Source: Halofilum sp. (in: g-proteobacteria)
GTDB lineage: Bacteria; Pseudomonadota; Gammaproteobacteria; XJ16; Halofilaceae
Assembly: GCA_040880995.1 (NCBI GenBank)
Contig: JBBEEB010000104.1
Span: 128-64,127, forward strand
Length of the DNA stretch: 64,000 bases
Direction: 5' to 3'
The translations under genes and the position numbers were made by a program. The notes beneath the pieces are model-generated. The model was given only the letters and a program-made list of their open reading frames with translations, was not told the origin of the DNA and searched no databases. This document shows, in pieces, positions 20,387-41,364 of this stretch; the first letter of the stretch is position 1; each line of letters starts with the position of its first letter.

Positions 20387-23300
20387 ATGGCGCATCGCCG
20401 CGAACCAACTTGGATGGCCGGCCCGCGGGCGCGCCCCCCAAAGCCGGGGCGCCGGAAGACTACCCAACCGGTGACCGCACGAGCACAATGCAGTCGTGCC
20501 CTCGTTGACCTTCCGGCCCGGCACTCGGATCGTCCAAGCGGTGGCCCGCTGCGAGCGCTGCAGCGAACGCACGAGGCGAATGCGTTGACAGCTCCCCCCC
20601 GCGACCCAGAGCTTTCCGGAGTGGTCCGCCCAAGGCCGGCCGCGTCCGACGACCATCGCGCCCAATCCGCGCTCGTGGCTTCGATGCTGGACGGTATGGT
20701 CTTGCTGGACGCCGCCGGCCGTATCGTCGAGTTCAACCCGGCGGCCGAGCGCACGCTCGGCTATGCGCGCAGCCAGATCATCGGCAAGGATTTCGCCGAC
20801 ACGCTCCTCCCTGAGCACCTGCGTGACGCGCATCGGCGTGGCCTTTCGGACTACCGCACCAGCGGCCAAGGCGATCTCGTCGGGCGGCGACTCGAGAGGC
20901 CGATCCTGCGCGCCGACGGCAGTGAGATCCTGGTGGAGCAATCCATTACCCCAGCCGATGCCGATGCCGGCGACGGGCCGCGGTTCGCATGCCAGCTACG
21001 CGACCTGACCGCGCACAAAAGCGGGGAGCGTCAGCTGCACCTACGCGTGGCGCAGCAGGCAGCCGTGGCCGCACTGGGGCAAGAGGCACTCGCCAATCAA
21101 GATTTGCAGGCACTGCTCGAACGCGCCGTACGGCTGGTGGCCGAGGCACTCGATACGGCGTTGTGCCAGGTGCTCGAGTTCGATGGCGAACGCTGGTTCG
21201 AACTGCGGGCAGGAGTCGGCTGGCCCGAGGACCTGATCGGCCGGACCCGCACCGGGTCCGAGGGCCAGGCCGGCTACACGCTGCGCGTGGGTGAGCCGGT
21301 CGTGGTCGACGATCTGCGCGTCGAGACGCGCTTTACGCCCATCCCCCTGCTGTTGGCTCAAGGGGTGATCAGCGGCATGAGCGCCGTCATCTGCGGACCC
21401 GACGATGATCCCTGGGGCGTACTGGCGACGCACTCGCGCCAGCGCAAGCAGTTCACCCCCGAGGACGCGCACTTTCTCCAAGCCGTCGCCAACACGCTGG
21501 CGACGGCAATCCAGCGGGCCAAGGGGGAGCAGTACGTGCTCGCGAGCGAGGCCCGGGAACGGGCCCGCGCCGATGAGCTCAACGCCATCATGGAATCGGT
21601 GCCCGCCGTCGTGTGGATCGCGCATGACGCGACCTCGTCGGTAATCTCGGGCAGCCGCAGCTCGTATGAGTTCCTGCGCATCCCGGCAGGACAGAACCAG
21701 TCGCAGACGGCCAGCCCGAACGAAGCGCCGACGCACTTTCAGATGCACATCGACGGGCGCCCGCTGTCGCCGCACGAGTTGCCGGTGCAGCGCGCCGCCC
21801 GCGGCGAAACGGTCGACGGCTGCGAGCTCGAGGCGCGATTCACGGACGGGTCCCGGAGCTTTCTGTTCGGCAATGCGACCCCGCTCTACGACGAACAAGG
21901 CCAACCGCGGGGCTCGGTCGCGGCCTTCGTCGATATCACCGAACTCAAGACGGCGCAGCAGGACCGCGAGCGGCTGCACGCCCGCCTCGAGGCCGACCGG
22001 GCGCTGATGGAGCGGATCCTCGAGCAGATGCCCGTGGGCGTGATCGCGGTCGAGGCGCCGAGCGGGAAGCGGCTGTTCCGCAATCCTCAGGTCGAGCGGT
22101 TGACCGGGTTCGCCACGGCCCCGCAACAACCGCACGAGCGGCATGACTTTCATGCCCGGTCGGACCAGGGCTGGCCATACACGCCCGATCGCTGGCCGTT
22201 GATCCGAGCGTTGCGCCAGGGCGAGACCATCACGGGCGAGGAGATGGCGTTCACCCACCGGGACGGTCGCACCCGCACGATCAGCGCGAGCGCAAGCCCG
22301 ATCCGCGACGCCGCCGGCCATCACATCGCCGCAGTGACGACCTTCCACGACATCACTGAGCGCAAACTGCGCGAGGAAGCGGCTTCCTTTCTCGCCGAGG
22401 TCACTGATCTGCTCGGCAGATCACTCGACTACGAGCAGACGCTGGCGCGGATCGCCCATCTCGCGGTGCCACGTCTGGGCGACTGGTGCATCGTGGATAT
22501 TTGTGAATCCGGGATCGGCGAGGTGCCGCAGTCCGGCATCCGCCGCTTTGCTGCACACGCCGATCCGGACAAGGTCGCCGTGGCTCAGCGTCTGGCCGAG
22601 CAAGACATCCTCGGGGCCGAGGCCTCCCGCGGCATCGGCCGTGTCATGTCTACGGGGGAGGCCGAATGGGCATCCGAGATCTCGGACACCATGCTGTGCG
22701 AGGCCGCCCGCGACGAAGAACACTTGCGTGCCCTGCGCGAGCTCGGGCTGCGCTCGTACATCTGCATGCCGATCAAGCGTCGGGAGGAAGTCCTCGGAAC
22801 GATCACACTACTGGCGGCCGAGTCCGGGCCGCGCGAGATCGGTCGCGACGTGCAACTGGCGGAGGAGCTGGCCGAACGCGTCGGTCTCGCACTGGACAAC
22901 GCCCGGCTGTACCAGGCCGCGCGGCGGGAAGTCGCCGAGCGCGAACGGGCCGAGCGCGAACTCCGTCAACTCAACGACGAACTGGAACAACGGGTGGCGG
23001 CGCGCACCGCGGAAACCGAGCAGCGCGCGGCCCAGTTGCGTGCCCTCACCGCCGAGCTCGCCCAGACAGAACAGCGCGAACGGCGGCGACTAGCGCAAAT
23101 ACTGCACGACCATCTGCAGCAGTTACTGGTCGCCGGCAAGCTCGAGATCGCGAACGCACGCCGCAAGGTCGGCGACGGAGCGTCCCTTCAGGCGCTCGAA
23201 CGAACGCACGACCTGCTGGATCAATCCATTCAGGAATGCCGTTCGCTCACGGTGGAGCTGAGCCCGCCCGTGCTCTACGACGCGGGCCTGATCGCCGGGC

Positions 23301-24151
23301 TTCGTTGGCTCGGTCAGTGGATGCACGAGCAACACGGCCTCACGGTCGATCTCCATGCCGACGAGGGCCTCGACCCGGAAGGGGACGACCTTAGCGTGCT
23401 GCTGTTCCAGGCCGTGCGCGAACTGCTGTTCAACGCCGTCAAACATGCAGGCGTCGATCGCGCCGAGGTCCGGGCGCGCCGCGACGCGACCGATCAACTC
23501 GAGATTCGCGTGCGTGACCGCGGCCGCGGCTTCGACCCAGCGTCTGCGGAGGCGGACGACACGCACGACCATTTCGGCCTGTTCAGTATCCGCGAGCGCG
23601 CCGCGCGCCTCGGCGGCGATCTGGCCGTCCACTCGACACCCGGTCGCGGCACCGAAGTCGTGCTCACCGTGCCCGATCGCTCGACCTCCGGCACGCCGGC
23701 CGGTGCCCAAGCGGGCGTTCCGCCAGAGGCGCGAGAGGCGCCCGATCACAAGCCGGTCGCGTCAGACGCGAATCGAACGGGCGCGATACGCGTGGTCCTC
23801 GCGGACGACCACGAGATCGTGCGTGCGGGGCTGGTCAGCGCATTGCAGGGTCAGCCCGACATCGACATCGTCGGCGAGGCCGGCGACGGTCGCACAGCCC
23901 TCGAGCAGGTTCGCCGCACGCGGCCGAGCGTGGCCATCCTCGACGTCACCATGCCGGGCATGACCGGGATCGAAGCCGCTCGGGCGATCACGAGCGAGTA
24001 TCCCGACGTCCGCGTGATCGGCCTTTCCGTGCATGATTCGGACGACATCGCCGCGGCCATGCGCGACGCCGGCGCGGTCGAGTTCGTCAACAAGGCCGCC
24101 GCCTCGGACCGTCTGCTGGCCGTAATTCGGGGGGTAGCACCGCCGCACTGA
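20387..24151 (+). CDS. Hybrid sensor kinase K1: PAS-GAF-PAS-PAS-GAF-HisKA_3-HATPase-REC
   Basis: RRRLAQILHDHLQQ H-box, ELLFNAVKHA N-box, DRGRGF, FGLFSIRER and C-terminal LADDH...LDVTMPGMTG...NK. The true start is uncertain (probably 20585-20690). Confidence 0.9.
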   Translation: MAHRREPTWMAGPRARPPKPGRRKTTQPVTARAQCSRALVDLPARHSDRPSGGPLRALQRTHEANALTAPPRDPELSGVVRPRPAASDDHRAQSALVASMLDGMVLLDAAGRIVEFNPAAERTLGYARSQIIGKDFADTLLPEHLRDAHRRGLSDYRTSGQGDLVGRRLERPILRADGSEILVEQSITPADADAGDGPRFACQLRDLTAHKSGERQLHLRVAQQAAVAALGQEALANQDLQALLERAVRLVAEALDTALCQVLEFDGERWFELRAGVGWPEDLIGRTRTGSEGQAGYTLRVGEPVVVDDLRVETRFTPIPLLLAQGVISGMSAVICGPDDDPWGVLATHSRQRKQFTPEDAHFLQAVANTLATAIQRAKGEQYVLASEARERARADELNAIMESVPAVVWIAHDATSSVISGSRSSYEFLRIPAGQNQSQTASPNEAPTHFQMHIDGRPLSPHELPVQRAARGETVDGCELEARFTDGSRSFLFGNATPLYDEQGQPRGSVAAFVDITELKTAQQDRERLHARLEADRALMERILEQMPVGVIAVEAPSGKRLFRNPQVERLTGFATAPQQPHERHDFHARSDQGWPYTPDRWPLIRALRQGETITGEEMAFTHRDGRTRTISASASPIRDAAGHHIAAVTTFHDITERKLREEAASFLAEVTDLLGRSLDYEQTLARIAHLAVPRLGDWCIVDICESGIGEVPQSGIRRFAAHADPDKVAVAQRLAEQDILGAEASRGIGRVMSTGEAEWASEISDTMLCEAARDEEHLRALRELGLRSYICMPIKRREEVLGTITLLAAESGPREIGRDVQLAEELAERVGLALDNARLYQAARREVAERERAERELRQLNDELEQRVAARTAETEQRAAQLRALTAELAQTEQRERRRLAQILHDHLQQLLVAGKLEIANARRKVGDGASLQALERTHDLLDQSIQECRSLTVELSPPVLYDAGLIAGLRWLGQWMHEQHGLTVDLHADEGLDPEGDDLSVLLFQAVRELLFNAVKHAGVDRAEVRARRDATDQLEIRVRDRGRGFDPASAEADDTHDHFGLFSIRERAARLGGDLAVHSTPGRGTEVVLTVPDRSTSGTPAGAQAGVPPEAREAPDHKPVASDANRTGAIRVVLADDHEIVRAGLVSALQGQPDIDIVGEAGDGRTALEQVRRTRPSVAILDVTMPGMTGIEAARAITSEYPDVRVIGLSVHDSDDIAAAMRDAGAVEFVNKAAASDRLLAVIRGVAPPH

Positions 24152-24301
24152 TCCATCCGGGATTTGACGCGACAAGCGCGGTTTGCTGCATCCGGCCGTT
24201 GGCTCGCTCGCCCACTCGGAATAAGCTGGGATTGCCGACGATCACAACGCCGCGATCGCACGCCGCCGTCGCGTGCCCCGGCGCTGGACAGGATCCAGTC
24301 C

Positions 24302-26374
24302 ATGGATTCGTTGCTCGTACGCGTGACCCTGACCGGGATCGGCTCACGCCGGCGCCCGGTATGGCATCACCCAGACGATCATGCCGGAAGGCATCGCAGT
24401 ACTATGGCCTCCCAACGCCGTACTGCTATCCGCGTTGCTGCTTTCGCCCTATCGGCATTGGCCGTGGATCGGTCTGGCCACGCTCCTTGCGGAATGCATC
24501 GCCGACATCCCGGCATTTCCACTCTGGGCCGCGGTCGCTTTCGGGCTGATCAATCTGTTCGAGAGCGCACTGGCCGCCTGGCTGATCCGCCGATTGGGCA
24601 CGGGTCCGTTCGACTTTGGTCGGCTCGCCAACGGGGTCCGCTTCCTCGTCTTCGGCCCTCTGTTTGGCTCTGCGTTGGCCGCGCTTTTCGGCGCCGCCGT
24701 GTACGTCCAGCTGCAAGGCGCCGAGGCCAACTATCTCGCGTTATGGCGCATCTGGTGGTTCGGCGACGCGCTGGGATTGCTCATCCTCACGCCCCCGATC
24801 ATCGCGCTGTGGCGACAGTTCGAGAGCCGCACACCGTTTGCGTTCTCGTGGCTCAAATTGGCGGAGGCCGTGGCCCTCGCACTTTCGGTCACCGCGTTGA
24901 GCATCGTGGTATTCATCCAGGACGAACCCCGGATGCCGCAGTTCTATTCCGCCCCCATACTCCTGTTGCCCTTGGGAATGTGGGCCGCGATTCGTTTCGG
25001 CATTTTCGGTACCGCCGCGACCATGGCGCTCATCGCCCTGCTGGCGGTGGCCCAACTCGTGCGCGGCGTTTATCCCTATCCGGACGTCACGGCGCAGCAG
25101 GCGGTCTGGCTCACGCAGGAGTATCTGGCGATCGTCGCCGTCGCGACGGTCGGTCTGTCGATCCTGCGGCACGAAATGGCCGAGCAGTGCCAGGCCCTGA
25201 TCGCCAGCGAGCGCGACCTGCGGCGTTTCAACGAGCAGCTCGAACAGCGCGTCGCCAAGCGTACCGCGGAGCTCGAACAGCGCGCGGCGCAACTTCGCGC
25301 CCTCACGTCTGAACTCACGCAGACCGAAGAGCGCGAACGCCGCCGCCTCGCCCAAGTGCTCCACGACCATCTCCAGCAGCTGGTCGTAGCGGGCAAGTTC
25401 GAGATCGCGTCGGCCCTCAACCAGTCCGACGACGAAGCGACCGCTGCATCACTGAAGCGCGTCGGCAACCTGCTGGACCAATCGATCCAGGAATCGAGGT
25501 CGCTGACGATCGAACTCAGCCCACCCGTACTCTACGACGCTAGGCTTATCGCCGGACTGGGATGGCTGACGCAGTGGATGCGGGAGCAGCACGGCCTGAC
25601 GGTCGACCTGCACGCAGCCGAAGGCGCGGATCCCTCGAGCGACGATCTCAGCGTCCTCGTCTTTCAGGCCGTACGGGAGTTTCTGTTCAACGTGGTCAAG
25701 CACGCCGGAGTCGATCACGCGGAGATCACCGTACGTCGCGACGAACTCGGTTGCCTCGAGGTCCGAGTATGCGATCTCGGTTGCGGGTATCGGACGTCTA
25801 GCGATTCTTCCGCGAGCGATCGGTTCGGTCTGTTCAGCATCCGTGAGCGTGCGCAACGCCTCGGTGGCGACCTCACGATCCGGTCTGCGCCCGGAAAGGG
25901 GACCTGCGCGGTGCTCACCGTGCCCGAGGACCCGGCGTCAGTGGCGCGCTGTGCGACGACGCCCGTGCCGCCGGCGCGGGCGCGCGATCCAGGGAATGGC
26001 TCGGTTCGATCGGGGGCGATCCGCGTGCTGGTGGCGGACGATCATGAAGTCGTCCGCGAGGGGCTGGTCGCGACCTTACGCGACCAGCCCGAGATCGTGG
26101 GCGAGGCGGGCGACGGCCAGGCCGCGGTCGAGCTCGTACGCGCCACGCGCCCCACCATCGCGGTGCTCGACATCACCATGCCAGTCATGAATGGCATCGA
26201 GGCGACCCGCGCCATTGTTTCCGAGTTTCCGGCACGCGCGTGATCGGACTGTCGGTGCACGACTCCGAGGACATCGCGGCCGCGATGCGCGACGCCGGTG
26301 CGATCGCCTATCTCAACAAGGCCACGGCATCGACCCGACTTCTGACGCTGATCCGCGAAGCGGCTTGCACGTAG
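24302..26374 (+). pseudogene. Hybrid kinase K2: MASE1-HisKA_3-HATPase-REC with two apparent frameshifts
   Basis: Main frame is 24381-26243. The N-terminus (ATG 24302) and REC tail (VIGLSVHD...TAG 26372-26374) are in other frames. Confidence 0.75.
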
Positions 26375-28194: not shown

Positions 28195-28860
28195 ATGCCG
28201 AGCATTTTCGTCGAACGCGGCCATCCGCGGAATCGGATTCTGATTGATTCCGAGAACAACCGACAGGCGATCGTCGATACCACCGGCCTGACCTGGCAGA
28301 TGCTGGGGGCGGCACGGGTCGCCATGGACGGACGCGTACTCGACTACATCGAAGAGCCCGACATGCGCCCACAGGATATCCTGGTGGCGTACGCGCGGGC
28401 GCAGAACGATCCCTCGCACGTGGGCCGCGCCTGGCGCACGATCCCGCACGAGCTGCGCAGCGGGACACAGCGCAACGAGCAAACCCGGTTCACGTCGTTC
28501 TACTTCGCGCTGCGCCGCTGGCGCCTGGACAGCGCGCGCTTCGTCGCCACCCATGACTGGCGTTCGCTACGCCGGTACAGCGGTCCGGGCCTGCTCTACA
28601 TCCCCGGGCGCGAGAGCACGTCACTGACGCCGTACACGCACACGAGCGCTTGGCCGGCACAATGGCAGATCGTCCCCGCCGCCGATGCAGACGATTACTC
28701 CCGCCGTTGGTCGATCAGCACCGAGGAAATGACGCTGCGCGCCCTGCGGGCGGCCGGACTCAACGCCGACGAAATCGCAGCAGAATGGCCACGCGGCACA
28801 TCGGCCGATGCCTCCGACCGATTCGACCTCTCGCCCATCCGGTACGCCCGCTTTCGCTGA
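28195..28860 (+). CDS. Hypothetical protein (221 aa)
   Basis: GAGGAG RBS before the ATG and host-like codon usage; no motif recognised. Confidence 0.6.
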   Translation: MPSIFVERGHPRNRILIDSENNRQAIVDTTGLTWQMLGAARVAMDGRVLDYIEEPDMRPQDILVAYARAQNDPSHVGRAWRTIPHELRSGTQRNEQTRFTSFYFALRRWRLDSARFVATHDWRSLRRYSGPGLLYIPGRESTSLTPYTHTSAWPAQWQIVPAADADDYSRRWSISTEEMTLRALRAAGLNADEIAAEWPRGTSADASDRFDLSPIRYARFR

Positions 28861-28869: not shown

Positions 28870-30393
28870 CTACTCGGTCTCGACCCGATTGCGTCCCAGA
28901 CGTTTCGCGCAGTAGAGCGCGTCATCCGCCTTCTGCATCAGAAGGTCGAGCGTGTCGCAGCCTTTCCATTCGGCCACGCCGAAGCTGGCCGTCACCCGGA
29001 TGACCTGCGACTGATGTTCGATAACCATGGCGTCGATCCCGGCACGAATCCGTTCGGCCACTTTGCATGCCTGGGCTGAGTCGGTCTGCGTCAGGAGGAT
29101 GACGAACTCCTCTCCGCCGGAGCGTCCGCATAGATCGCTCGGGCGCAGTGCATCGCTGACGGGATCGAAGATTCGTCTCAGGACTTCGTCGCCGGTGTCA
29201 TGCCCGTAGCAATCGTTGACCTGCTTGAAATGGTCCAGATCGAACATGATCAGCGACGCGGTCTCGCCATCCGCAGCCACACGCTTGAGCTGGCGCTGAC
29301 CGAGCTGCTCGAAATGGCGACGGTTCGCGAAGCCGGTCAAAAAATCAGTGGTCGCCAGCTGCTCGAGTCGCTTGTTCGCCTTCCGCAGCTCCTCGTTGGC
29401 GCGTTCAACCTCGCTCGTGCGCGCGGCTACGGCTGTCTCGAGTTGCGCGTTGTGTGCATGGAGTTCGCGCTCCTGCGCCAGCAGCATCTCGCGTTGTTGC
29501 CGTAACTCATGCATGAGGATCGCCAATCCCACCGAGGCAACGACGACGATGGTCAGGTACTCCTGGGTCAGCCAGACCGCCTGCGCGGGGGTAACCTGGG
29601 GGTACGGGTATATCCCCTCGACGAGGTGGCCAACGGCCAGCAGAGAGATCAGCGCGACGATCACGCTGGCACCGAGCACTTCGAACCTTAGAGCTGCCCA
29701 AAGACCCACCGGCAAGAGCAGGATGGGCGCGAAATCGAACTGCAGGGCGTCCGGATCGTTCTGGATGAACGCGAGTACACCCATGATCAGGACAACCAAT
29801 ACGAGCGCCGCGAACTCCAGAACGCGCGTCCACTCAAGCCGCATCCATCGGGCCTGCTCGATCCAGCGGACCGCGGTGACGAGCAACGGAGTCAGCACCA
29901 ACAGGCCCAACGCGTCGCCAAACCACCATATCCGCCACGCCGCGAAATATCCGCTGTCCGCGCGCCCAAGCAGCACATAGATCGCCGCGCCGAACACGGC
30001 GGCCAGCGCCGAGGCCAGCAGTGGCCCGGCCAGCAAGAACACGCGTCCCTCGTAGAGGCGGTTGAACCCGAATCGCTCGCCGCACAAATGTCGAATCAGG
30101 GAGGCCGCGAGCGTGGCCTCGAGCACATTGATCAGCCCGAACCCGATGGCGGCCGACACCGGGAACGCCGGTATGTCGGCGACGAGTTCGGCAGCAAGGG
30201 CGGCCAGGGCCAGCCACGGCCACTGGCGTGGTGGGCATAACAGCAAGGCCGCCAACAGCACGGCATTGGGTGGCCACAGCACCGCGATTCCGCTGGGGGC
30301 GATCGTGTAGTTCACGCCGTACCACGCGCAGAGGTAATACCCGCCGGCGACAAGCGCCATACGCCGGAGCACGACGAGTGAAGAACCTTCCAT
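28870..30393 (-). CDS. MASE1-GGDEF diguanylate cyclase
   Basis: LWPPN MASE1 motif, TDFLTG..NRR, DLDHFKQVND.YGH, RPSD I-site and GGEEF. Start trimmed to MEGSS. Confidence 0.92.
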   Translation of the reverse strand: MEGSSLVVLRRMALVAGGYYLCAWYGVNYTIAPSGIAVLWPPNAVLLAALLLCPPRQWPWLALAALAAELVADIPAFPVSAAIGFGLINVLEATLAASLIRHLCGERFGFNRLYEGRVFLLAGPLLASALAAVFGAAIYVLLGRADSGYFAAWRIWWFGDALGLLVLTPLLVTAVRWIEQARWMRLEWTRVLEFAALVLVVLIMGVLAFIQNDPDALQFDFAPILLLPVGLWAALRFEVLGASVIVALISLLAVGHLVEGIYPYPQVTPAQAVWLTQEYLTIVVVASVGLAILMHELRQQREMLLAQERELHAHNAQLETAVAARTSEVERANEELRKANKRLEQLATTDFLTGFANRRHFEQLGQRQLKRVAADGETASLIMFDLDHFKQVNDCYGHDTGDEVLRRIFDPVSDALRPSDLCGRSGGEEFVILLTQTDSAQACKVAERIRAGIDAMVIEHQSQVIRVTASFGVAEWKGCDTLDLLMQKADDALYCAKRLGRNRVETE

Positions 30394-31601: not shown

Positions 31602-31650
31602 GACATTTTCCTCATAGATGTATCGGGCACCCCCCCTTCCCGAATCCGCT

Positions 31651-31672
31651 GTAGGTCGGGCTTTGGCCCGAT
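31651..31672 (+). repeat. GTAG-family REP
   Basis: GTAG-GTCGGGC-TTTG-GCCCGAT. Confidence 0.75.
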
Positions 31673-31704
31673 CGAACCCCGCTGCACGATTCGGTCAGGC
31701 TGAA

Positions 31705-31865
31705 GAGACTGTGTAAGAAATCCGGCGCCTACTGCGGAAGCGCCACAGCGGCCGCTTTTGACGATCCTTCTCGTCGCATAAGACCCACTATGTTCCTCGA
31801 ACGATCGTCAAAATCGCCTCGCCGGGCCACTTCCTCGCTACGGCGCGGATTTCTCACACAGTCTC
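31705..31865. mobile_element. 161-bp non-autonomous MITE inserted in a REP loop
   Basis: 20-bp TIRs GAGACTGTGT(A/G)AGAAATCCG at 31705-31724 and 31846-31865; TGAA direct repeat at 31701-31704 and 31866-31869; internal 11-bp inverted repeat at 31756-31766 / 31803-31813. Confidence 0.82.
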
Positions 31866-31976
31866 TGAAGCCTGACCTACTGCGTGCGTGCAGCGCGCGA
31901 TCGACGTCCCGGCGAGTTGTGAATGCCGCACCAGTGCCGCTACCCGAAGCACCCTTCAAGCCCTACACGGCCCCGG

Positions 31977-32288
31977 CTACGACTGAGCGCCGCTGGCCTC
32001 GACGAACAAACGGCGCCAACGCGCCAATCCCTCGGCGCGGATCGTGAGGTCGGTCTCCGCCCTCCCCTCGGCGATGGCCGGATCGATGTAGACCTCAAGG
32101 CCATCGATCTCACGTTGCAGCCAGCGCCCCGGCTCGTCCGGGCGGCGCGCTTCGGCCACGGGCAGCATGGCGGTGCCGCCGCAACAGCCATGACGCGGCG
32201 ACGCGCGCAACGTCACTGCGCCGCCGTGGCGCCGGAGCCAGTCGCGTGCCCCGGCGTCCACGTGGATTCGCGGCCCGTGCGGCGTCAC
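31977..32288 (-). CDS. Small HesB-like CC-motif protein (resembles the CC/Se-motif family) in the ars operon
   Basis: GTG start overlaps the acr3 stop (GTGA); RHGCCGGT motif; DGLEVYID pattern typical of HesB/IscA-like folds. Confidence 0.7.
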   Translation of the reverse strand: MTPHGPRIHVDAGARDWLRRHGGAVTLRASPRHGCCGGTAMLPVAEARRPDEPGRWLQREIDGLEVYIDPAIAEGRAETDLTIRAEGLARWRRLFVEASGAQS

Positions 32289-33382
32289 GCACTCGCCCCC
32301 ATCGCCTGGCCAGTCGGAAATCGGTCGCGCGTGCGATTGGCGATGCGCACCAGGGCGAGCATGACGGGCACCTCCACCAGCACGCCGACGACCGTCGCCA
32401 GGGCCGCGCCCGACTGCAGCCCGAACAGCGCGATTGCCGCGGCCACCGCCAGCTCGAAGAAGTTGCTGGCGCCGATCATGGCTCCCGGGGCCGCCACTGC
32501 ATGCGGCACACGCCAAACGCGGGCCCAGCCGTAGGCGAGCGCGAAGATCAGGAAGGTCTGCACGATCAGCGGAATCGCGATCAGCACGATATGCAGCGGA
32601 TTGTTGAGGATCACCTCGCCCTGGAAGGCGAACAGCAACACCAGCGTGAGGATCAGGCCGGTCGGGGTGACCGCGCCGAGGCGCGGCATGAAATCCTTGT
32701 CGAACCACTCGACGCCCCTGTGCGCGATCAGCGCCCGGCGCGTGGCATAGCCGGCGGCGAGCGGGATCACGATGTAGAGCACCACCGAGAGTGCCACGGT
32801 GTTCCAGGGCACGCTGATGTCGGAGATGCCCAGCAGGAACACGACGATGGGCGCGAAGGCGAACAGCATGATCAGGTCGTTCACCGAGACCTGTACCAGC
32901 GTGTAGGCCGGATCGCCGCGGGTCAGGTAGCTCCAGACGAACACCATGGCCGTGCACGGTGCCGCGCCCAGCAGGATAGCGCCGGCCAGATACTCGCGCG
33001 CCAGCGCGGCCGGGATCAGCGGTTCGAATACCACCACGAGGAAAAACCAGGCGATGGCGAACATCGTGAACGGCTTGATCAGCCAGTTCACCGTGGTGGT
33101 GATGATCAGGCCTTTGGGCTGTCGCCGCACGCCAAGGATGGAAGCAAAATCGATCTGGACCATCATTGGGAAGATCATGGCCCAGATCAGGATCGCCACC
33201 GGGATCGAGACCTGGGCGTACTCAAAGCGCGCCAGCGCAGCCGGCACGGCCGGCACCCATTGGCCGAGCGCAATCCCCACGATGATCGCCAGGGCCACCC
33301 ATACGGTCAGGTAACGCTCGAACAGGCCCATACCCTCGCGGATATCGGGGGCCTGCTGTGCAATTTCGGAGTTGGCGTTCAT
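32285..33382 (-). CDS. acr3: ACR3-family arsenite efflux permease
   Basis: FERYLT.WV, NWLIKPF, LLGAAPCTAMVFVWS, GASNFFELAVA and VGVLVEVPVML. Confidence 0.95.
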   Translation of the reverse strand: MNANSEIAQQAPDIREGMGLFERYLTVWVALAIIVGIALGQWVPAVPAALARFEYAQVSIPVAILIWAMIFPMMVQIDFASILGVRRQPKGLIITTTVNWLIKPFTMFAIAWFFLVVVFEPLIPAALAREYLAGAILLGAAPCTAMVFVWSYLTRGDPAYTLVQVSVNDLIMLFAFAPIVVFLLGISDISVPWNTVALSVVLYIVIPLAAGYATRRALIAHRGVEWFDKDFMPRLGAVTPTGLILTLVLLFAFQGEVILNNPLHIVLIAIPLIVQTFLIFALAYGWARVWRVPHAVAAPGAMIGASNFFELAVAAAIALFGLQSGAALATVVGVLVEVPVMLALVRIANRTRDRFPTGQAMGASA

Positions 33383-33407
33383 CGGCTCACATTCTCGACA
33401 TTTCGAA

Positions 33408-33866
33408 TCAAAGGGTCGGTTTCGTCTCGGGGCCCGCGGACGCATCGCTGCGCAGCAGATCGTGCTCAGCGAGCAGCGCGTGGACCCGCGCGCGAATGTC
33501 ATCGCGCACACTGCGAAACTCGGCCGCGATCTCATCCTCAGTCCCCCGCGCTCGAGCGGGATCGGGCAGCGGCCAGTGGACCTTACGCGTGCCCGGCGGC
33601 AGCAGGGGACACTGCTCGTCGGCGTCTCCACAGACGGTGACTACCAGATCGGCACTCGCCAGCATCGCGTCATTCAGCCGAGTCGACTGTTGGCCGGAGA
33701 TGTCGATACCGACTTCGTTCATCGCCGCGATGGCACGCGGATTCTGACCATGCGGATCGATGCCCGCGGAGGCCGCGCCGGTCCCGTCGACGGCCAAGGC
33801 GCGGGCAAAGCCCTCGGCCATCTGGGAGCGGCAGGAGTTACCGGTACAAAGGAACAGGATGCGCAT
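33408..33866 (-). CDS. arsC: Thioredoxin-type (LMW-PTP fold) arsenate reductase
   Basis: FLCTGNSCRSQMAEG P-loop, TVCGDADEQCP and HW.L.DP. Confidence 0.93.
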   Translation of the reverse strand: MRILFLCTGNSCRSQMAEGFARALAVDGTGAASAGIDPHGQNPRAIAAMNEVGIDISGQQSTRLNDAMLASADLVVTVCGDADEQCPLLPPGTRKVHWPLPDPARARGTEDEIAAEFRSVRDDIRARVHALLAEHDLLRSDASAGPETKPTL

Positions 33867-33882
33867 GGGACGTCTCCAGAAT

Positions 33883-34218
33883 TCAGTCGCAAGCGGCCGA
33901 GGGACGGCTGGGCATGCTGGCCAACCGCTGGCGCACGTCGCTCAGTGCCTCGGCCTGAAAGGTCGCCTCGAGCACGTCGTGTGACCACGGCGGCAGTGCC
34001 GGATGCAGGCGGTAATGGACCCACTGCCCGCGACGCTCGTCCTGAACGATGCCGAGGTCGCGCAGATGACCGAGATGGCGCGAGACGCGCGGCTGCGAGA
34101 GTTCGAGCGCATGCACGAACTCGCATACGCACAGGCGCTCTTCCGCAAAGAGCAGCAGGAGGCAGCGCAGGCGCGTCGGATCGGAGAGCGCGCGGAAGAA
34201 TTGCTCGGGCTCATGCAT
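33883..34218 (-). CDS. arsR: ArsR/SmtB family repressor
   Basis: FRALSDPTRL, ELCVCE-type box (RLCVCE), SQPRVSRHL..LR and R.GQWVHY. Confidence 0.93.
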   Translation of the reverse strand: MHEPEQFFRALSDPTRLRCLLLLFAEERLCVCEFVHALELSQPRVSRHLGHLRDLGIVQDERRGQWVHYRLHPALPPWSHDVLEATFQAEALSDVRQRLASMPSRPSAACD

Positions 34219-34555: not shown

Positions 34556-37234
34556 ATGGAACGCCAACTCCCCCAATCGAGGCGTGGTACGACGGACTTG
34601 GTCGAATCCGAGTGCCGCCGTGCGCTGGAAACCCTCGTCCTCGGAGCACCGCTCGAAGACGCGCTCGACGTGCTCGTCCGCGCAGCACAAGTGCGTGCCG
34701 GGGGCGGTGCGCACGCCGCCGTGTTCATCCCTGCCCGTGACGACACCGGATGCGCCGTCGGCGCCGCCTCCGATCCATCTTTTGTGCATGTAGGAGTCGA
34801 CGCCAGGTCCAGTAGCGACCCCGCTTCCCAGACCCGCCGCCGGGCGGCATTAGCTGGCGAACCGATCATCGTCTCCGACGTCACGACGGATCCGCGGAGT
34901 CAGGATCTGGCCGATCGCGCCGATCAAAGCGGTATCCGCGCCTGCTGGTCCTATCCGATCGCCACATCGCGCGGCGAGGTGACCGGCAGCTTGGAGGTTT
35001 ATCCGGTTCGAACGTGCGAACCCGGGCCGGAAGATGTCGCCTGGCTCGAGGCGCTCGCACATACAGCCGGCGTCATCGTCGAACGAGATCTGGAGCCGAG
35101 CGACAAACGGGAACGGCTGGACGAAGAGCGCGATGCGCTGCTCGACATGGTAGCGGCCGGGCACCCGGTGGCCGATTGCCTTTCGGCACTGTGCGCCGCG
35201 ATCCCGCGGCTCGATCCCGGCACCCGGGCTTGCGTTCAACTCGCCGATGCCGAGCGCCGGCGGTTTCGCGCCTCCGTTGCTCCCGACTTCGAATCCATTT
35301 TCCGCGAAGCGGTCGAGGGCGCACCGGTAGACGATGTAAAGCTCGGCAGCTGCGCTGGTGCGATATCCCACGGCCAATCCGTGACCTGCCCCGACACGGA
35401 AAACGACCCACTTGGGTCTCAGGCATGGCGCGACCTATGCGTCGCATGCGCGATTCGCGCGTGTCATGCCGAACCCATCATGGATTCGAACGCTCGCCCC
35501 GTGGCGTCCTTCATGCTGTGCTTCGATCAACCACAGCTGCCCGATGCGTGGGCGCGGCGCCTTGCCGCATTCGGCGCGCGCATCGCCGCCATTGCCCTCG
35601 GGCGCGAACGCTCGAACGACGCACTGCGGGAGAGCGAAGAACGCTATCGCGCCGTGGTAACGGCGACATCGGATGTGGTCTATCGGATGAGCGCGGATTG
35701 GAGCGAGATGCGCACACTCCGCGGCTATCCCTTCCTCAGCGATACGGAAGAACCCGACCGGGACTGGCTTTCCAAATACATCCACCCGGATGACCAGCCG
35801 AAGGTGTTGGAAACAATCCAACAGGCGATTGAACACAAGAAGATATTTGAACTCGAACATCGGGTGCTCCGCCCGGATGGCACGTTGGGCTGGACACTCT
35901 CGCGCGCCATTGCGGTACTCGATGAAGACGGCGAAATCACCGAATGGTTTGGCACCGCCAGCGATATCACCGAGCGCAGGCGCGCTGAAGACGCGTTGCG
36001 TGAGTCTGAGGCGCGACTACGGGAGCTGAACCACTCGCTCGAGCAACGGGTCGACGAACGCACCCACGAACTGCAGCGCCAGGCAGAGCGCTTGCGCGGC
36101 TTGGCCATCGAGCTCACCACCGCCGAACAGCGTGAACGCCGACGGCTCGCCGCCATGTTGCACGACGACCTACAGCAATCGGCCGTTGCAGGTAGGATCC
36201 AACTCAAGCAATGCCGGTCGCGGGTATACGACCAGACCGCGATCGACGCGATCGGCACCACGGAAGACCTGCTGGACGAGATCATGGCCACGTCCAGGGA
36301 TCTGACCCGCCAGCTAAGGCCCGCGGCGTTGTACGAGGATGGTCTGATCGCGGCACTTCGTGGCCTGGCTTCGGACATCGAACGTCGTTATCTCATGCAC
36401 GTAGCGCTGGACTCCGGCGACGCGAACCCCGCCCTCGCAGAAGATGCCAAGGTGTTCGTATTCGAGACCTGCCGCGAGTTGCTGATCAACGCCGCCAAGC
36501 ACGCAGACGCGGATCGAGCCACCATCTCGATTCGACACGAACAGAAGCATCTGCACGTAGCCGTGTGCGATCGAGGCGCGGGCTTCGATCCCGAAACCAT
36601 CGACACGCCCACGCCTCATGGCACCGGATTCGGCCTGTTCAGTATCCGCGAACGGCTGGCCGCCCTGGGCGGCAACCTTCAGATCGAGTCCGCACCCACC
36701 TGGGGCACGCGAATCGAACTCGCGTTACCGGTCACGGATCTCAGTGACTCTGGCGCCCCCAGAGAGTTCCAGGCGGCTCATGCGCAATTGGTCCCCGCCG
36801 ATGCATCAAGCCATTGCACCCGGGTGCTGCTGGTCGATGATCATGTCGTGGTACGCCAAGGCCTGGCGCAGCTGCTCGAGTCGCACGCCGAACTGGTAGT
36901 CGTCGGCGAGGCCGGGGATGGCGCCGAGGCCGTTGGACTGTTCCAGCAGCGGATGCCGGACGTAGTGCTGATGGACGTCAACATGCCAGGCATGAACGGC
37001 GTCGAGGCCACGCATCGGATCTGTCGCCGGTGGCCCGAGGCCATCGTCATCGGATTGTCGGTTCAGGATAACCTCGCCACGGATGACATGATGCGCGAGG
37101 CGGGCGCGGCGGGCTTCCTCGCCAAATCAGGGAATGGAGAAGAGATGCTGGCGACCATCCGCCGACTGACCTATAGCGGCGGTCACAAGAGTGCGTTCAC
37201 AGATTGCCACGAAACGGGCGGACGCGCCGTGTGA
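34556..37234 (+). CDS. Hybrid sensor kinase K3: GAF-GAF-PAS-HisKA_3-HATPase-REC
   Basis: RRRLAAMLHDDLQQ, ELLINAAKHA, FGLFSIRER and VDDH...MDVNMPGMNG...AK. Confidence 0.9.
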   Translation: MERQLPQSRRGTTDLVESECRRALETLVLGAPLEDALDVLVRAAQVRAGGGAHAAVFIPARDDTGCAVGAASDPSFVHVGVDARSSSDPASQTRRRAALAGEPIIVSDVTTDPRSQDLADRADQSGIRACWSYPIATSRGEVTGSLEVYPVRTCEPGPEDVAWLEALAHTAGVIVERDLEPSDKRERLDEERDALLDMVAAGHPVADCLSALCAAIPRLDPGTRACVQLADAERRRFRASVAPDFESIFREAVEGAPVDDVKLGSCAGAISHGQSVTCPDTENDPLGSQAWRDLCVACAIRACHAEPIMDSNARPVASFMLCFDQPQLPDAWARRLAAFGARIAAIALGRERSNDALRESEERYRAVVTATSDVVYRMSADWSEMRTLRGYPFLSDTEEPDRDWLSKYIHPDDQPKVLETIQQAIEHKKIFELEHRVLRPDGTLGWTLSRAIAVLDEDGEITEWFGTASDITERRRAEDALRESEARLRELNHSLEQRVDERTHELQRQAERLRGLAIELTTAEQRERRRLAAMLHDDLQQSAVAGRIQLKQCRSRVYDQTAIDAIGTTEDLLDEIMATSRDLTRQLRPAALYEDGLIAALRGLASDIERRYLMHVALDSGDANPALAEDAKVFVFETCRELLINAAKHADADRATISIRHEQKHLHVAVCDRGAGFDPETIDTPTPHGTGFGLFSIRERLAALGGNLQIESAPTWGTRIELALPVTDLSDSGAPREFQAAHAQLVPADASSHCTRVLLVDDHVVVRQGLAQLLESHAELVVVGEAGDGAEAVGLFQQRMPDVVLMDVNMPGMNGVEATHRICRRWPEAIVIGLSVQDNLATDDMMREAGAAGFLAKSGNGEEMLATIRRLTYSGGHKSAFTDCHETGGRAV

Positions 37235-37300: not shown

Positions 37301-38911
37301 CTACGCATCTCGCCTAGTGCCCAACCGGCGCGTCCGAGCACGCCGCCGGCGCCAGCCTTTGCCGCGCCGGCCAGTACGCCTCAACGGGAGCCGCAACCGG
37401 ATACGGCAACCACCGTTGGAGGCGACGTCGAAACGGCCGCCGAGCAACTCCACGCGCTGGCGGATGTTGGCCAGACCATAGTGCCCCGAATTGGTCTGCG
37501 TAAGCTGGTCCGGGTGGACGCCCGCGCCACGGTCCTCCACCTCCACCTCGAGCCATGAGGATGTGCGCCGCAAACGCAACCAGGCGGTATCGCTGTCGGC
37601 ATGCTTGACGACGTTCAGCAGCAGTTCGCGAGTCGCCTGCAGAACGAATGAGGCGATCTCGGGGAGTTCCGCGTCCGAGGACTCATCCGTCTCGACCTGC
37701 ACGTCGAGGCCATGCCGGTCGCGTGCCTCCTCGCCGAGCCAGCGCATGGCAGCCGCCAGCCCGAGCGTATCGAGCACGGGTGGATGCAGTTCCACCGACA
37801 AAGTGCGCGCGTTGCCGATGGCCTCGCGAATCAGCGCGTCGGCCCGCTCGCCGGCTGCGACTTCCCCGCCGCGCAAGCGCGCGACCGCCATGTTCGCGGC
37901 GACCAGCAGTTGTTGCAGGTGATCGTGCAGCACCTGGGCGATCCGCTGGCGCTCGCGGTGCTCTGCGCTGCTGAGTTCGCGCGCCAGATCCTCGGCCCGC
38001 GTCCGCCGCTCGTCCGACTCCGCCCGCAACAGCGCCGTGACGTAGGTCGCGACATTGAGTGTGAATGCGAACACGACGTCGCGCAGGAAGTAGACGTGAA
38101 AATCCTGCGGATTCGCCATGCGCAGCTCCAGCGTACTCAGGGACAAATACACCACCGAGGTGAGTCCGACGGCCGTCGCGGCCCACTTCACCGGCACGCG
38201 CATCGCGATCGCCAGATGCGCTGCGACGAGCAGGTAGCGTGCCTGTTCGGGGGCCGGCATCAGCAGCACCAGCGTGGTCACGCCGGCCAGCGCGGCGAGT
38301 TCGCCGGCCTCGCGCAGCCCGAGATCCAGCTGCATACGCGCCAGCCACAACACGAACGGCGGCGCCAGCGCCAGCAGTCCCATCCAGTCGGACAAGGCCG
38401 CGGCATGCCAGGTAGCGCTCCACCCGATCCAGGAGTGGGTCGTCACCAGGCCGCCCACCCATTGCCCCAGCACCAGCGGGACCGCGCCTACGAAGCAGGC
38501 CACAGGCGCCGCGACCAGCATCGCGACGAGGAAAGGGCCGGCGCGGGCCAGATAATCCTCGCCTGTCATGCGCCAGATGAGCCACGCGGCCAGCACGGGC
38601 TCCACCGTGGCCGCCACACCATTAATCAGCGCGCCACCGACCTGGGCCAGCGTTACACCCCCGTCATACGTGCTGAGCATCCCCGCGGGCACCGACACGA
38701 GGAAGATCAACGGCCACACGCGTAGGCCGCGCGTGAGCACGAGCGCCAGGCCGATGCCGGCGGCAGGCCAGATCAATGGCGCGGGCGCATTCGCCGCACC
38801 GAGCAGCTCGGCGCCCCAGGTGGCTACGGCGAAATACGCCGCGAGCAGCCCGCCCGTGGCGAGGCGCCCTGCGGGCGCAATGGGAGGCTGGGACGGGATC
38901 GGGGCTTCCAT
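37301..38911 (-). CDS. Sensor kinase K4: MASE1-HisKA_3-HATPase, no receiver
   Basis: IWPAAG MASE1 motif with several TM helices; RQRIAQVLHDHLQQ, ELLLNVVKHA and YGLANIRQR. Confidence 0.88.
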   Translation of the reverse strand: MEAPIPSQPPIAPAGRLATGGLLAAYFAVATWGAELLGAANAPAPLIWPAAGIGLALVLTRGLRVWPLIFLVSVPAGMLSTYDGGVTLAQVGGALINGVAATVEPVLAAWLIWRMTGEDYLARAGPFLVAMLVAAPVACFVGAVPLVLGQWVGGLVTTHSWIGWSATWHAAALSDWMGLLALAPPFVLWLARMQLDLGLREAGELAALAGVTTLVLLMPAPEQARYLLVAAHLAIAMRVPVKWAATAVGLTSVVYLSLSTLELRMANPQDFHVYFLRDVVFAFTLNVATYVTALLRAESDERRTRAEDLARELSSAEHRERQRIAQVLHDHLQQLLVAANMAVARLRGGEVAAGERADALIREAIGNARTLSVELHPPVLDTLGLAAAMRWLGEEARDRHGLDVQVETDESSDAELPEIASFVLQATRELLLNVVKHADSDTAWLRLRRTSSWLEVEVEDRGAGVHPDQLTQTNSGHYGLANIRQRVELLGGRFDVASNGGCRIRLRLPLRRTGRRGKGWRRRRARTRRLGTRRDA

Positions 38912-39135
38912 GTTTGACGTGGGGCATCCTGTCCGCTGATCCCTGGAGACTCCACGCAGAATAGTTGCCAGCCCCGTTCGGGGCCACCGCGCACGACGAT
39001 TGGCCAACCCCATGGATAGGGTGACTCACTGCAAGCCGCTCCGCTCCGGGAGGAGCCCATCGCGCGCCGAGCCGATCCGCGAGATGCGCACCTCGCCTCG
39101 CTGAGGCACCAACACATGCCTCCACGGCAGTATCG

Positions 39136-41364
39136 CTATATGGGTTTTTCTCCGCGGATGGCCGCGAGTAGGCTTTCGGAGGCTTCTGCCTTATTGACGT
39201 ATGCCACGGCCCCCGCCTTTTCCATCGCCTCCGCCAGATCGGCCGACTCATGCACTGAAAGCCCCACCACGCGAATTCCGGGATGCTCGGTGGTAATCGC
39301 GCGCGCGGCTTCGATACCGCTCATCCCGGGCATGGTCACGTCCAGCACGACGACATCGGGTCGAACGCGACGGACGACCTCCACGGCTTCCTGACCATTA
39401 GCGGCCTCGCCGAGCACCGTTATATCCGGCTCTCCCGCGAGCGCGTTGACCAGCCCCTTGCGCACGATCGCGTGATCGTCGGCCAGCACTACCGTTCTCG
39501 TCGTTGTTCGAGCCGGCGGTTCGTCCGTGTAGTGGCGCGAATCGTCGTCCACAACGCCGATACCCTTGTCACTTGTATGCGCGAGGGCTTCCTTGCCGTG
39601 ACCACTATCGTCCGGAACCCTCAGTGCTACACGGGTACCCTTACCGGGTACCGAATCGATGGTCATCTCGCCGCCAAGCCACGCCATGCGCTCGCGCATG
39701 TTGAACAGCCCGAAGCGATCCTGCGCGTTCGATAGGGCGCTCTTCGCATCAAAGCCCCGGCCGACGTCGGCCACGGCCGCTTCGATGATCCCGTCGACCC
39801 GGCGAAGGGACACCTCGGCGCCGTCGGTCCCGGCGTGCTTGACCACGTTAAAGAGCAGTTCCCGTACAGACTGGAACAGCAGCGCGCGCAGATCTTCGCC
39901 GCCAGGCTCGGCTAGGGACGACGCGGATACCTCCACTCGGAGACCCTGCTGCGCTTCCATCCAGCGTCCAAGGGCGCCGAGGGCCGCGGTAAGGCCCGCA
40001 TCGTAGAGCACGGGTGGGATGAGTCCCGCGGTGAGCGACCGCGACTCCTCAATGGCTTGAACCAGCAAGTCATCGACCCTGCTGATTCCTTGTGCGGCCT
40101 GCTCGTCCGTCACCCCGTTCGCCAACGAGCTGAGCTGAATCCGACCGGCGACGAGTAGCTGCTGGAGGCTATCGTGCAGGATATCGCCGATGCGGCGGCG
40201 TTCGCGTTGCTCCGCCTGGGTGAGTTCGGCGGCCAGTGCACGCAGCTGCGCGGCGCGCTCTTCGAGCTCCGCCGTACGTTCAGCGACGCGTTCCTCGAGC
40301 GAGGCGTTGATCTCCTTCAGTCGCTGTTCACTCTCACGCAGGGCTTGCTCGACGCGTTTGCGATCCGTGAGATCGACACCTTGGACGTAGATCCCGGTTA
40401 CCGTGCCTTCGACGCTCCGGACGGGCTGATAGACGAAATCAATCCAGCGAGTCTCGTAGGCCTCTGTCTTCGGCTGATCGGCCGGAGGCGCCAGGACTAT
40501 CGATACATCGCGGCCAACGAACGTTTCTCCCGTATGGAATACATGATCGAGAAGCTCGAGGAACCCCTGACCCTCGATCTCGGGCAATGCCTCCGCCATG
40601 GGTTTGCCGACTAAGCACCGGTGGCCGACAAGCGCCATGAAGTGATCGTTCGCCCGCTCAAAGACGTGCTCGGATCCACTCAGGACACACATGAACGAGG
40701 GAGCGTTACGAAAGATCTCGGCGAGCTGGGTTCGCTCGGCCTGGGCCTCCCGCAGTCGATGCTCACTCTCGGCCCGCGCCTTCTGGGCGGCCTCATAGAG
40801 TCGGGCATTTTCCACCGAGATCGCGGCGATTTCGGCCAGCTGTGCCAGCACATTCTCGTCGTGCTCGGTGAAATCCGCGCCGTCGTGTTTGTCGGAGAGT
40901 TGGACCAATCCGATGTTCTCGCCGCGGCGCCCGACGAAGGGCGCTGCCAGCCAGCCACGCATTGGGGGGTGATGTTCCACCTCGGAGCCAAACCGCCGCC
41001 ATCTGGGGTGCGCCTCCAGCTCCGCCTGCGTTAGGCGCATCGGGCGGTTGGTTTCGCACACGAGCGAATAGATGCCCGAGCCGTCGGGGGGCGTGGCGTA
41101 ATCCCGCCACGCGGCGTAAGTCTCGGATAACGACACCGCACTGTTTCGTTGAGCCCAGTTGTGGCCGATGGTGAGGCTGGCCACGGATTGGTGTGCCCCA
41201 ACCAGACTGCGGGCTTCCTCGGCGATTGCCTCGAGCGTCGGCCCGACGCCACGGGTGGAGTTGATCCGTCGAGCAGCCTTGCTCAGCTGTTCGAGCGTGA
41301 TGCTCGTAGCCGTATCTCGGCCGCTACAGGATCCTCGCGGGCCGTCATTCGCGGTAGGGGGCAT
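39136..41364 (-). CDS. Hybrid sensor kinase K5: GAF-PAS-HisKA_3-HATPase-REC
   Basis: RRRIGDILHDSLQQ, ELLFNVVKHA, FGLFNMRER and LADDH...LDVTMPGMSG...NK. Probable start at MPPTAND. Confidence 0.9.
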   Translation of the reverse strand: MPPTANDGPRGSCSGRDTATSITLEQLSKAARRINSTRGVGPTLEAIAEEARSLVGAHQSVASLTIGHNWAQRNSAVSLSETYAAWRDYATPPDGSGIYSLVCETNRPMRLTQAELEAHPRWRRFGSEVEHHPPMRGWLAAPFVGRRGENIGLVQLSDKHDGADFTEHDENVLAQLAEIAAISVENARLYEAAQKARAESEHRLREAQAERTQLAEIFRNAPSFMCVLSGSEHVFERANDHFMALVGHRCLVGKPMAEALPEIEGQGFLELLDHVFHTGETFVGRDVSIVLAPPADQPKTEAYETRWIDFVYQPVRSVEGTVTGIYVQGVDLTDRKRVEQALRESEQRLKEINASLEERVAERTAELEERAAQLRALAAELTQAEQRERRRIGDILHDSLQQLLVAGRIQLSSLANGVTDEQAAQGISRVDDLLVQAIEESRSLTAGLIPPVLYDAGLTAALGALGRWMEAQQGLRVEVSASSLAEPGGEDLRALLFQSVRELLFNVVKHAGTDGAEVSLRRVDGIIEAAVADVGRGFDAKSALSNAQDRFGLFNMRERMAWLGGEMTIDSVPGKGTRVALRVPDDSGHGKEALAHTSDKGIGVVDDDSRHYTDEPPARTTTRTVVLADDHAIVRKGLVNALAGEPDITVLGEAANGQEAVEVVRRVRPDVVVLDVTMPGMSGIEAARAITTEHPGIRVVGLSVHESADLAEAMEKAGAVAYVNKAEASESLLAAIRGEKPI

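Follow-up and report, generated by a model that had tools for sequence, protein, structure and literature searches.

Clustered HisKA_3 sensor kinases in a Halofilum genome: members of a large family with fused NarL-type receivers

The sequence analyzed in this study is a 64,000-nucleotide stretch of a Halofilum sp. genome (hereafter the window), corresponding to positions 128-64127 of contig C104 (JBBEEB010000104.1). This 77-kb contig is the longest in a metagenome-assembled genome (MAG) of 2.5 Mb and 94% completeness. The window contains five sensor kinase genes, K1 to K5, which a first-pass annotation described as an array of local HisKA_3 paralogs, four of them with a fused NarL-type receiver (REC) and none with a DNA-binding domain, and interpreted as a many-to-one signalling hub and a candidate undescribed system. 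The gene cluster is real and was correctly described; it is a sample of a large hybrid-kinase variant and not a discrete new system.

Pfam searches confirm that HisKA_3 kinases with different sensors are encoded at all five positions. K1 (20387-24151, plus strand) has the architecture PAS-GAF-PAS-PAS-GAF / HisKA_3 / HATPase_c / REC, without a helix-turn-helix (HTH) domain; its H-box ends in ...RERRRLAQILHDHLQQ, the linker between its catalytic and ATP-binding (CA) domain and the receiver is about 39 aa long, and the public gene call of 1158 aa implies a start near 20675. K3 (34556-37234, plus strand) consists of GAF-GAF-PAS / HisKA_3 / HATPase_c / NarL-type REC, and K5 (39136-41472, minus strand) of GAF-PAS / HisKA_3 / HATPase_c / NarL-type REC, with a disordered CA-REC tether of about 28-40 aa. 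K4 (37301-39013, minus strand), located 122 bp downstream of K5 on the same strand, has a weak MASE1 match, HisKA_3, and HATPase_c, without a receiver. Its MASE1 score of 22.4 bits is below the Pfam cut-off of 29.8, so that the sensor is best described as a MASE1-like membrane domain, and its HisKA_3 domain reaches 27.9 in the genome scan but 22.8 as a protein (cut-off 24). A paralog of K4 is found on contig C139.

The remaining gene, K2 (24381-26374, plus strand; MASE1 / HisKA_3 / HATPase_c / REC), is interrupted. Its open reading frame (ORF) stops at 26243, and the receiver profile match is limited to positions 1-67, since a 1-nt frameshift near 26228-26232 splits the receiver, as assembled; the remainder (GTRVIGLSVHDS...YLNK) continues in the next frame (frame 2) up to a stop at 26372-26374. 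The MASE1 domain (107.6 bits) covers profile positions 26-297 only, with the first transmembrane helix (TM1) lost, and the region upstream of the K2 ATG (24300-24400) retains residual MASE1 TM1 homology interrupted by stops. Because of the frameshifted receiver and the stop-broken TM1, K2 appears degenerate at both ends, and as read from the assembly the gene is probably decaying. The statement that four receivers are fused to the kinases therefore stands for K1, K3, and K5, whereas the fourth receiver is split. K2 is 65% identical to K1 in the core and 69% in the receiver, while its MASE1 and signalling helix (S-helix) are 58% identical to those of a neighboring MASE1-GGDEF diguanylate cyclase (28870-30657, minus strand). 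This double likeness points to an older domain-shuffling origin of K2, and supports the view that a K1-like core and receiver were joined to a cyclase-type MASE1 by an older duplication.

The transmitter cores are well conserved. PF07730 (HisKA_3) is above its cut-off in K1, K2, K3, and K5; HATPase_c (PF02518) scores 39-57 bits in all five proteins, and all five contain LHD(H/D/S)LQQ, with the phospho-accepting His and the HDxxxQ motif. The S-helix/H-box, N-box, and G2-box are common to K1-K5 in the alignment, and the N, G1, and G2 boxes align as ELLxNxxKHA, DxGxG, and FGLxxxxER. K1, K3, and K5 have an intact C-terminal NarL-type receiver; the DD-D-S-K residues are kept in all fused receivers, in K2 only when it is read through the frameshift. 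Pfam found no GerE/LuxR HTH in K1-K5, which end 5-25 residues past the receiver. Judged from these motifs, both the kinases and the receivers appear to be catalytically competent.

The best PDB sequence match of the receivers is NarL (1a04, E=5e-18), and when all 33 receivers of the genome are placed in one tree, the fused ones fall inside the NarL-type clade. The AlphaFold2 model of the K5 module (mean predicted local distance difference test score 86.9) consists of a hairpin of the dimerization and histidine phosphotransfer (DHp) domain, a CA domain, a disordered tether at residues 233-260, and the receiver. Foldseek matched this module to full-length ShkA, DesK, the DesK-DesR complex, and the receivers of NarL, VraR, LiaR, and DesR, and the CA fold to VraS and DesK. 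None of the NCBIfam models attains its cut-off for K1-K5; the nearest ones are MctS, UhpB, NarQ, and LiaS for the core and GacA/UvrY and NarL for the receiver.

The window holds only five of the 15 family members in the genome, namely eight hybrids (K1, K2, K3, K5, K6, C136, C110, and C82), five non-hybrids with the phospho-accepting His (K4, C139, C57, C97, and C124_8578, of which K4 and C139 are both membrane MASE1-like proteins), and two members with a His-to-Gln replacement. K6 (C104:69152-72064) lies 5 kb past the window end among rph, yicC, rdgB, and mltF. The two members without the His, C124:2464-3819 (plus strand, LLQDDVQQ) and C6:4222-5583 (minus strand, ELQENLQQ), keep the N and G boxes and are candidate pseudokinases or phosphatase-only paralogs. 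Only two further HisKA_3 kinases are present; both are classical, and a REC+GerE regulator is encoded next to only one of them (C135). The last 11.6 kb of C104 (65360-76950) are duplicated by contig C47:1-11591 with 200 mismatches, after which C47 continues. This overlap is assembly redundancy or a co-assembled strain variant, and due to it K6 is counted twice in genome scans. Contamination or a binning artefact was ruled out as the source of the family, which occurs on more than 10 contigs, including the largest one with its housekeeping genes, and in the relative G012.

The clustering is non-random under uniform placement, with five of the 15 family genes in 21 kb (p ~1e-4) and six in 52 kb (p ~1e-4). 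The proposal of an array of local paralogs did not hold up. In a core tree built from 13 family cores of this genome and 48 foreign sequences, one 16-sequence clade contains K1 and K2 together with a foreign K1-like sequence (P0007), K5 next to its ortholog (P0001), and C136 next to another foreign ortholog; the sister of K3 is C82 (support 100), among foreign sequences; and K4, which is deep-branching, K6, and the C97/C124 group lie outside the clade that contains K1, K2, K3, and K5. The approximately unbiased (AU) test rejects K1-K5 as a single clade (p=2e-13) and also rejects the 13 own-genome cores as a single clade (p=1e-4). Within the five, the closest mutual grouping is that of K1 and K2 only. 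The cluster is thus an accretion in an accessory-gene-rich stretch of the chromosome plus one older domain-shuffling duplication, and K1-K5 form neither a tandem array nor an operon-like system. As the 15 copies are scattered through the genome, the window cluster is not a self-contained new signalling system.

The family itself is very large. Among 8,000 candidates scored with the K5 core and receiver as a query (384 aa, residues 395-778), more than 2,400 proteins matched. In each of the best 120 homologs, HisKA_3+HATPase+REC spans at least 96% of the module (43-67% identity), and GerE and Hpt are absent from all 120. An exhaustive phmmer search of 1.84 billion cluster representatives yielded 9,655 clusters at 50% identity (E<=1e-30), the best 150 matches covering the whole module; the named sources include Planctomycetota, Nitrospira, Desulfobacterota, Spirochaetota, and Balneolaceae. 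The common module consists of a HisKA_3 (DesK/NarX-type) transmitter, a flexible tether of ~30-40 residues, and a NarL-type receiver that lacks a DNA-binding domain, and is preceded by interchangeable PAS, GAF, or MASE1 sensors. The core motif noted in the first-pass annotation is indeed present in K1-K5, but it is family-wide and not specific to them: in foreign family sequences, most positions of the H-box EQRERRRLAQVLHDHLQQLLVAAK are conserved to at least 90%, and the motif thus marks the family, not a local duplication. The fused receivers of this genome, of Spirochaetota, and of Balneolaceae form one clade (SH-aLRT 94) within the NarL-type clade (95), with subgroups that mirror the core tree, which suggests that the core and receiver duplicate as a unit. 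Clusters of two to four family kinases were also observed in other phyla (L019 of Nitrospira sp. NFB02, L022 of Balneolaceae, L030, and L099), and in L022 a receiver-only gene lies between the family kinases; local clustering is thus not unique to this genome. K1-K5 are ordinary members of a very large, ancient sensor-kinase family, and with 9,655 clusters containing the module the architecture cannot be called undescribed at the level of sequences. Our literature searches for hybrid HisKA_3 kinases found no paper and no characterised member.

The architecture is not routine in the lineage. Hybrids were found in one of 12 same-genus genomes, G012, which has seven of them as well as non-hybrids and a receiver-only match; the other 11, of which seven are at least 91% complete, have no hybrids, and none were found in 18 genomes of other families of the class. 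Family orthologs in the relative are dispersed among housekeeping genes. For instance, the K5 ortholog (67% identity over core and receiver residues 395-778) stands alone in a different genomic context. The rarity of the hybrids among relatives and the dispersal of the orthologs indicate that the architecture is neither routine in the lineage nor syntenic, and the family looks like a package that was gained, or retained, and then expanded in one sub-lineage.

Candidate partners of the kinases were sought in the whole genome. GerE, Hpt, and Response_reg profile scans found nothing on C104 beyond the fused receivers, hence no LuxR-HTH regulator, histidine phosphotransfer (HPt) protein, or CheY is present in the window, as previously reported, or on the rest of the 77-kb contig. 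The first-pass annotation had reckoned with the possibility of polyphyletic cores, each with a cognate regulator just outside the window; the cores are polyphyletic, but no regulator is encoded on the contig. The genome-wide search for an orphan NarL regulator or HPt protein that it had called for yielded one such regulator, on C144, the only orphan NarL-proper regulator of the genome. At E<=0.1, Pfam profiles, which divergent HPt proteins escape, detected no stand-alone HPt protein in this assembly (94% complete). HPt domains are present only in three large kinases, on C67 (ChpA-like), C93 (TorS-like), and C81 (GacS/BarA-like), the last being an unorthodox kinase with the layout TM-HisKA-HATPase-REC-HPt. 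Five of the seven GerE proteins have receivers; judging by motifs in the receiver sequences, we take two of these to be FixJ-like, one GacA-like (C147:48437), one the partner of the C135 kinase, and one the C144 regulator.

Two receiver-only genes encode proteins of the fused-receiver subtype. One (C147:15235-15891, plus strand) is located between lolD and comEC and has a 76% identical ortholog in the same lolCDE-[REC]-comEC-exbBD-msbA-lpxK block of a relative with the kinase family; the other (C52:23424-24005, plus strand) follows the sarcosine oxidase soxA-soxG genes. Both proteins group with the K3/C82 receivers (support 99, up to 62% identity). Similar receiver-only proteins occur in Nitrococcus, Phycisphaeraceae, and Balneolaceae, whereas among the same-genus genomes without hybrids the only match at E<=1e-20 is a 277-aa frame of G003, a candidate for this subtype. 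In Spirochaetota, a REC+GerE regulator directly follows a family hybrid at two loci (L032 and L040) and lies 1.5-3 kb from one at three others (L025, L035, and L054), with no HPt gene found at these five loci. The C144 regulator groups with these hybrid-adjacent regulators in the receiver tree (support 91-95).

Among the other genes of the window, the MASE1-GGDEF cyclase reported earlier was confirmed by Pfam, with GGEEF and an RxxD inhibitory site (I-site). Its MASE1 and S-helix are paralogous to the K2 sensor, so that the cyclase is a neighbor of K2 with the same sensor type; their tie would be this common sensor, and a phosphotransfer tie is at most putative. Between K2 with the cyclase and K3 there is an arsenic-resistance cassette (30870-34218, minus strand), consisting of an ArsH-like FMN reductase (30870-31601), an ACR3/SBF transporter (32285-33631), and ArsR (33883-34218), all on the minus strand. 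Directly upstream of K1 and divergent from it is a gene for a cobW/COG0523-type GTPase (19307-20310, minus strand); a plus-strand ORF at 19637-20230 was considered as a small K1 partner and rejected as a shadow of this gene. No family match was found for ORF 28195-28860. A UvrD/HelD-like helicase gene (41581-43875, minus strand), 108 bp upstream of K5 on the same strand, occupies the part of the cluster where GC is lowest (0.62) and may share a transcript with K5 and K4; a promoter and terminator scan of 24-43.9 kb found nothing exceeding shuffled expectation. A 1285-aa ORF without a Pfam match (1797-5654, minus strand) in a low-GC segment (0.55) probably represents foreign DNA on the margin of the accessory region, and tRNA-Phe (46210-46285, minus strand), ~2 kb past the accessory-gene-rich stretch with MltB in between, may mark an old island boundary. 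The remaining genes are a mix of housekeeping and accessory functions, including those encoding DUF945, MltB, MutY, AsmA, HemN, a copper ATPase, and a Fic protein.

We suggest that the family works as a branched sink, a reading that we consider evenly balanced between right and wrong, in which the His of each kinase would donate to its tethered Asp with a branch to free NarL-type receivers, the kinases together forming a poorly insulated multikinase set. Each sensor would control autophosphorylation of the His in LHDxLQQ, and the phosphoryl group would move to the tethered Asp. Since the fused receiver has no output of its own, it is a likely intramolecular acceptor, either a sink or a feedback element, and would set the kinase or phosphatase flux to the free NarL-type receivers. 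The predicted free targets are the single-domain receivers on C147 and C52, and the probable transcriptional output is the orphan NarL-family regulator on C144. The DxxxQ phosphatase motif, the flexible tether, the small number of free NarL-type receivers, and the lack of a free HPt are consistent with this scheme. Moreover, the DHp recognition helix hardly varies across the aligned paralogs, which suggests that insulation is mainly by tethering and that the paralogs probably converge on a few free receivers. The many-to-one hub of the first-pass annotation is therefore plausible as a many-to-few network, but not as one made up of K1-K5, which are not self-contained.

Several points weigh against the branched sink. 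Throughout the family the mechanism is deduced from domain content, and the link to C144 comes from one quick receiver tree. Halofilum ochraceum, a Planctomycetota MAG, and a near relative also have regulators of the C144 type, which there are either orphans or next to a HisKA kinase; none of them is beside a family kinase. When the ORFs within 5 kb of 34 hybrid loci from other phyla were clustered, no conserved partner was found, occasional regulators aside; only kinases, the receivers themselves, and shadow ORFs recurred, and nothing HPt-like. The conserved DHp face could reflect intramolecular contact rather than common free partners, the three in-kinase HPt domains could accept from the fused receivers, and, as the MAG is 94% complete, an HPt protein or further regulators could be missing.

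The last two points would be central if the hybrids fed a multistep phosphorelay, from the fused receiver to the HPt of the C81 or C93 kinase, or to a divergent or unassembled HPt, and on to a regulator such as the GacA-like C147:48437. Such a relay is possible, if rather unlikely. HPt relays are usual for hybrid kinases, the genome contains three HPt-domain proteins, among them the unorthodox C81 kinase, together with a GacA-like regulator, and the best model for the K3 receiver is UvrY/GacA (97 bits). There is also a precedent in Pseudomonas aeruginosa, where LadS signals to the HPt of GacS (PMC4866733). The absence of a stand-alone HPt in the scans, of Hpt in all 120 best homologs, of an HPt gene beside the Spirochaetota hybrid-plus-regulator pairs, and of any recurring small helical neighbor across the 34 loci argues against it.

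We also consider, though as rather unlikely, an HPt-independent network of a kind new for HisKA_3 kinases, in which a free single-domain receiver acts as an integrator via protein-protein contact, the whole package having been acquired and expanded in the sub-lineage. Its parts would be the hybrids, the non-hybrids, the His-less pseudokinases, and the syntenic single-domain NarL-type receiver, with many cytoplasmic and membrane sensors that would cross-phosphorylate the same set of NarL-type receivers without output. So far, the free single-domain receiver has been found only in family-bearing genomes, the candidate match in G003 aside. This network would parallel the HWE/HisKA_2 kinases and single-domain receivers that constitute the network of the alphaproteobacterial general stress response.

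Another reading, which we regard as unlikely, is that output resides in the fused receivers, which once phosphorylated would act by protein-protein contacts, for example on proteolysis or on the MASE1-GGDEF cyclase; paralogs would phosphorylate receivers in trans, and K4, having none, would use that of K5. In the account of Schramm et al. 2012 given in PMC4320627, EspA phosphorylates both its own receiver and that of EspC. The adjacency of K5 and K4 on one strand, 122 bp apart, the near-invariant DHp helix, which would allow trans-phosphorylation, and the paralogy of the K2 and cyclase sensors fit this reading. On the other hand, nothing in our data points to an interaction target, C139 (the K4 paralog) and the other non-hybrids are not beside hybrids, the orthologs in relatives are single genes in unrelated contexts, and the hybrid-adjacent regulators in Spirochaetota point to transcriptional output.

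That there is no network at all seems very unlikely to us. In this reading every kinase would sense independently and signal to a distant partner of its own, and the genes would be clustered only because a flexible part of the chromosome happened to accumulate them. In its favor, the five kinases are polyphyletic within the family, their orthologs are dispersed in the closest family-bearing relative, and the region contains the ars genes, the copper ATPase, the Fic protein, the low-GC 1285-aa gene, and the helicase, with tRNA-Phe near. Against it, 13 His-bearing kinases share a genome with one orphan NarL-proper regulator and two receiver-only proteins, and the recognition helix has not diverged among the paralogs. 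Finally, a split relay like that of TodS/TodT, in which His1-Asp1-His2-Asp2 runs through two transmitters to a NarL-family regulator (PMC4321377), is highly improbable for the transfer from a hybrid receiver to the His of a non-hybrid (K4, C139, C57, C97, or C124) and on to a NarL-type regulator, as, in spite of the same DHp face in hybrids and non-hybrids, the non-hybrids have full sensors and intact ATP-binding boxes and so appear to be autonomous kinases, the two His-less members cannot relay, and no hybrid/non-hybrid pairing is conserved across genomes.

Taken alone, the window is not a source of novel domains, chemistry, or gene organisation. Many hybrid kinases have no recognizable HPt partner, a problem that this family poses in a HisKA_3/NarL-type form, on the scale of about 10^4 clusters at 50% identity and with a module ~50% identical across phyla. 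The Halofilum genome is a compact test case in which 15 kinases occur with two receiver-only proteins and a single orphan NarL-proper regulator, without a free HPt, and its close relatives without the family are natural controls. If the branched sink is true, and the receivers are sinks or integrators for a common regulator, the logic of multikinase networks extends to the HisKA_3 class; if it is not, the finding amounts to no more than clustered orphan sensors.

In textbook cases, HisKA_3 kinases are non-hybrid proteins, each with a partner regulator. That hybrid kinases may serve as phosphate sinks or relays is an established idea, so that the sinks and relays proposed in the first-pass annotation do not make a new kind of system. 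Orphan location of short hybrids is the norm, with 985 orphan short HisKA hybrid kinases against 126 with cognates, and the eight commonest kinase architectures in 399 genomes include no HisKA_3 hybrid (PMC2267735, Table 2). The LadS/RetS/GacS system of Pseudomonas (PMC4866733, PMC8498467) resembles the family in the tethered receiver, the orphan location, the convergence of sensors on one output, and the absence of an own HPt; unlike the family, with HisKA_3, a NarL-type receiver, and no known HPt link, it has HisKA DHp domains and a demonstrated HPt (in GacS). EspA and EspC of Myxococcus xanthus, in the same account of Schramm et al. 2012 (PMC4320627), are orphan hybrids without HPt, one of them with a MASE1 sensor, and are phosphorylated both within and between the proteins; the output described there is MrpC turnover, and no HPt or regulator is known according to that account. 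K2 and K4 match the MASE1 region of EspC, while their DHp region matched no Esp model; the transmitter probably belongs to another subfamily, and no counterpart of MrpC turnover was identified here. TodS/TodT (PMC4321377) combines a cytoplasmic PAS kinase that has an internal receiver with a NarL-family regulator at the end and no HPt domain; whereas TodS has two transmitters in one protein, the second transmitter here would be a separate paralog.

ShkA of Caulobacter (PDB 6qrj), the best Foldseek match to the whole K5 module, shares the arrangement of DHp-CA and tethered receivers. The two align at 15% identity with a TM-score of 0.30. The tethered receiver of ShkA occludes the DHp, and ShkA signalling involves the HPt protein ShpA as well as a pseudo-receiver that binds c-di-GMP. 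The combination of a MASE1-type sensor and HisKA_3 in UhpB is also found in K2 and probably in K4 and C139; the match to the UhpB NCBIfam model is 70-108 bits against a cut-off of 408, there is no uhpA or uhpC nearby and no regulator on the contig, K2 has an added receiver, and the MASE1 of K4 is under the Pfam cut-off. The canonical pairs of a HisKA_3 kinase and a NarL-family regulator, such as DesK/DesR, NarX/NarL, and DosS-DosT/DosR, have the same DHp family with HDxxxQ, CA domain, and receiver family. Unlike these, the kinases described here have the receiver fused, without HTH, and no adjacent regulator gene. DosS and DosT have GAF sensors, as do the K1/K3/K5 family members, and are two kinases that feed one regulator.

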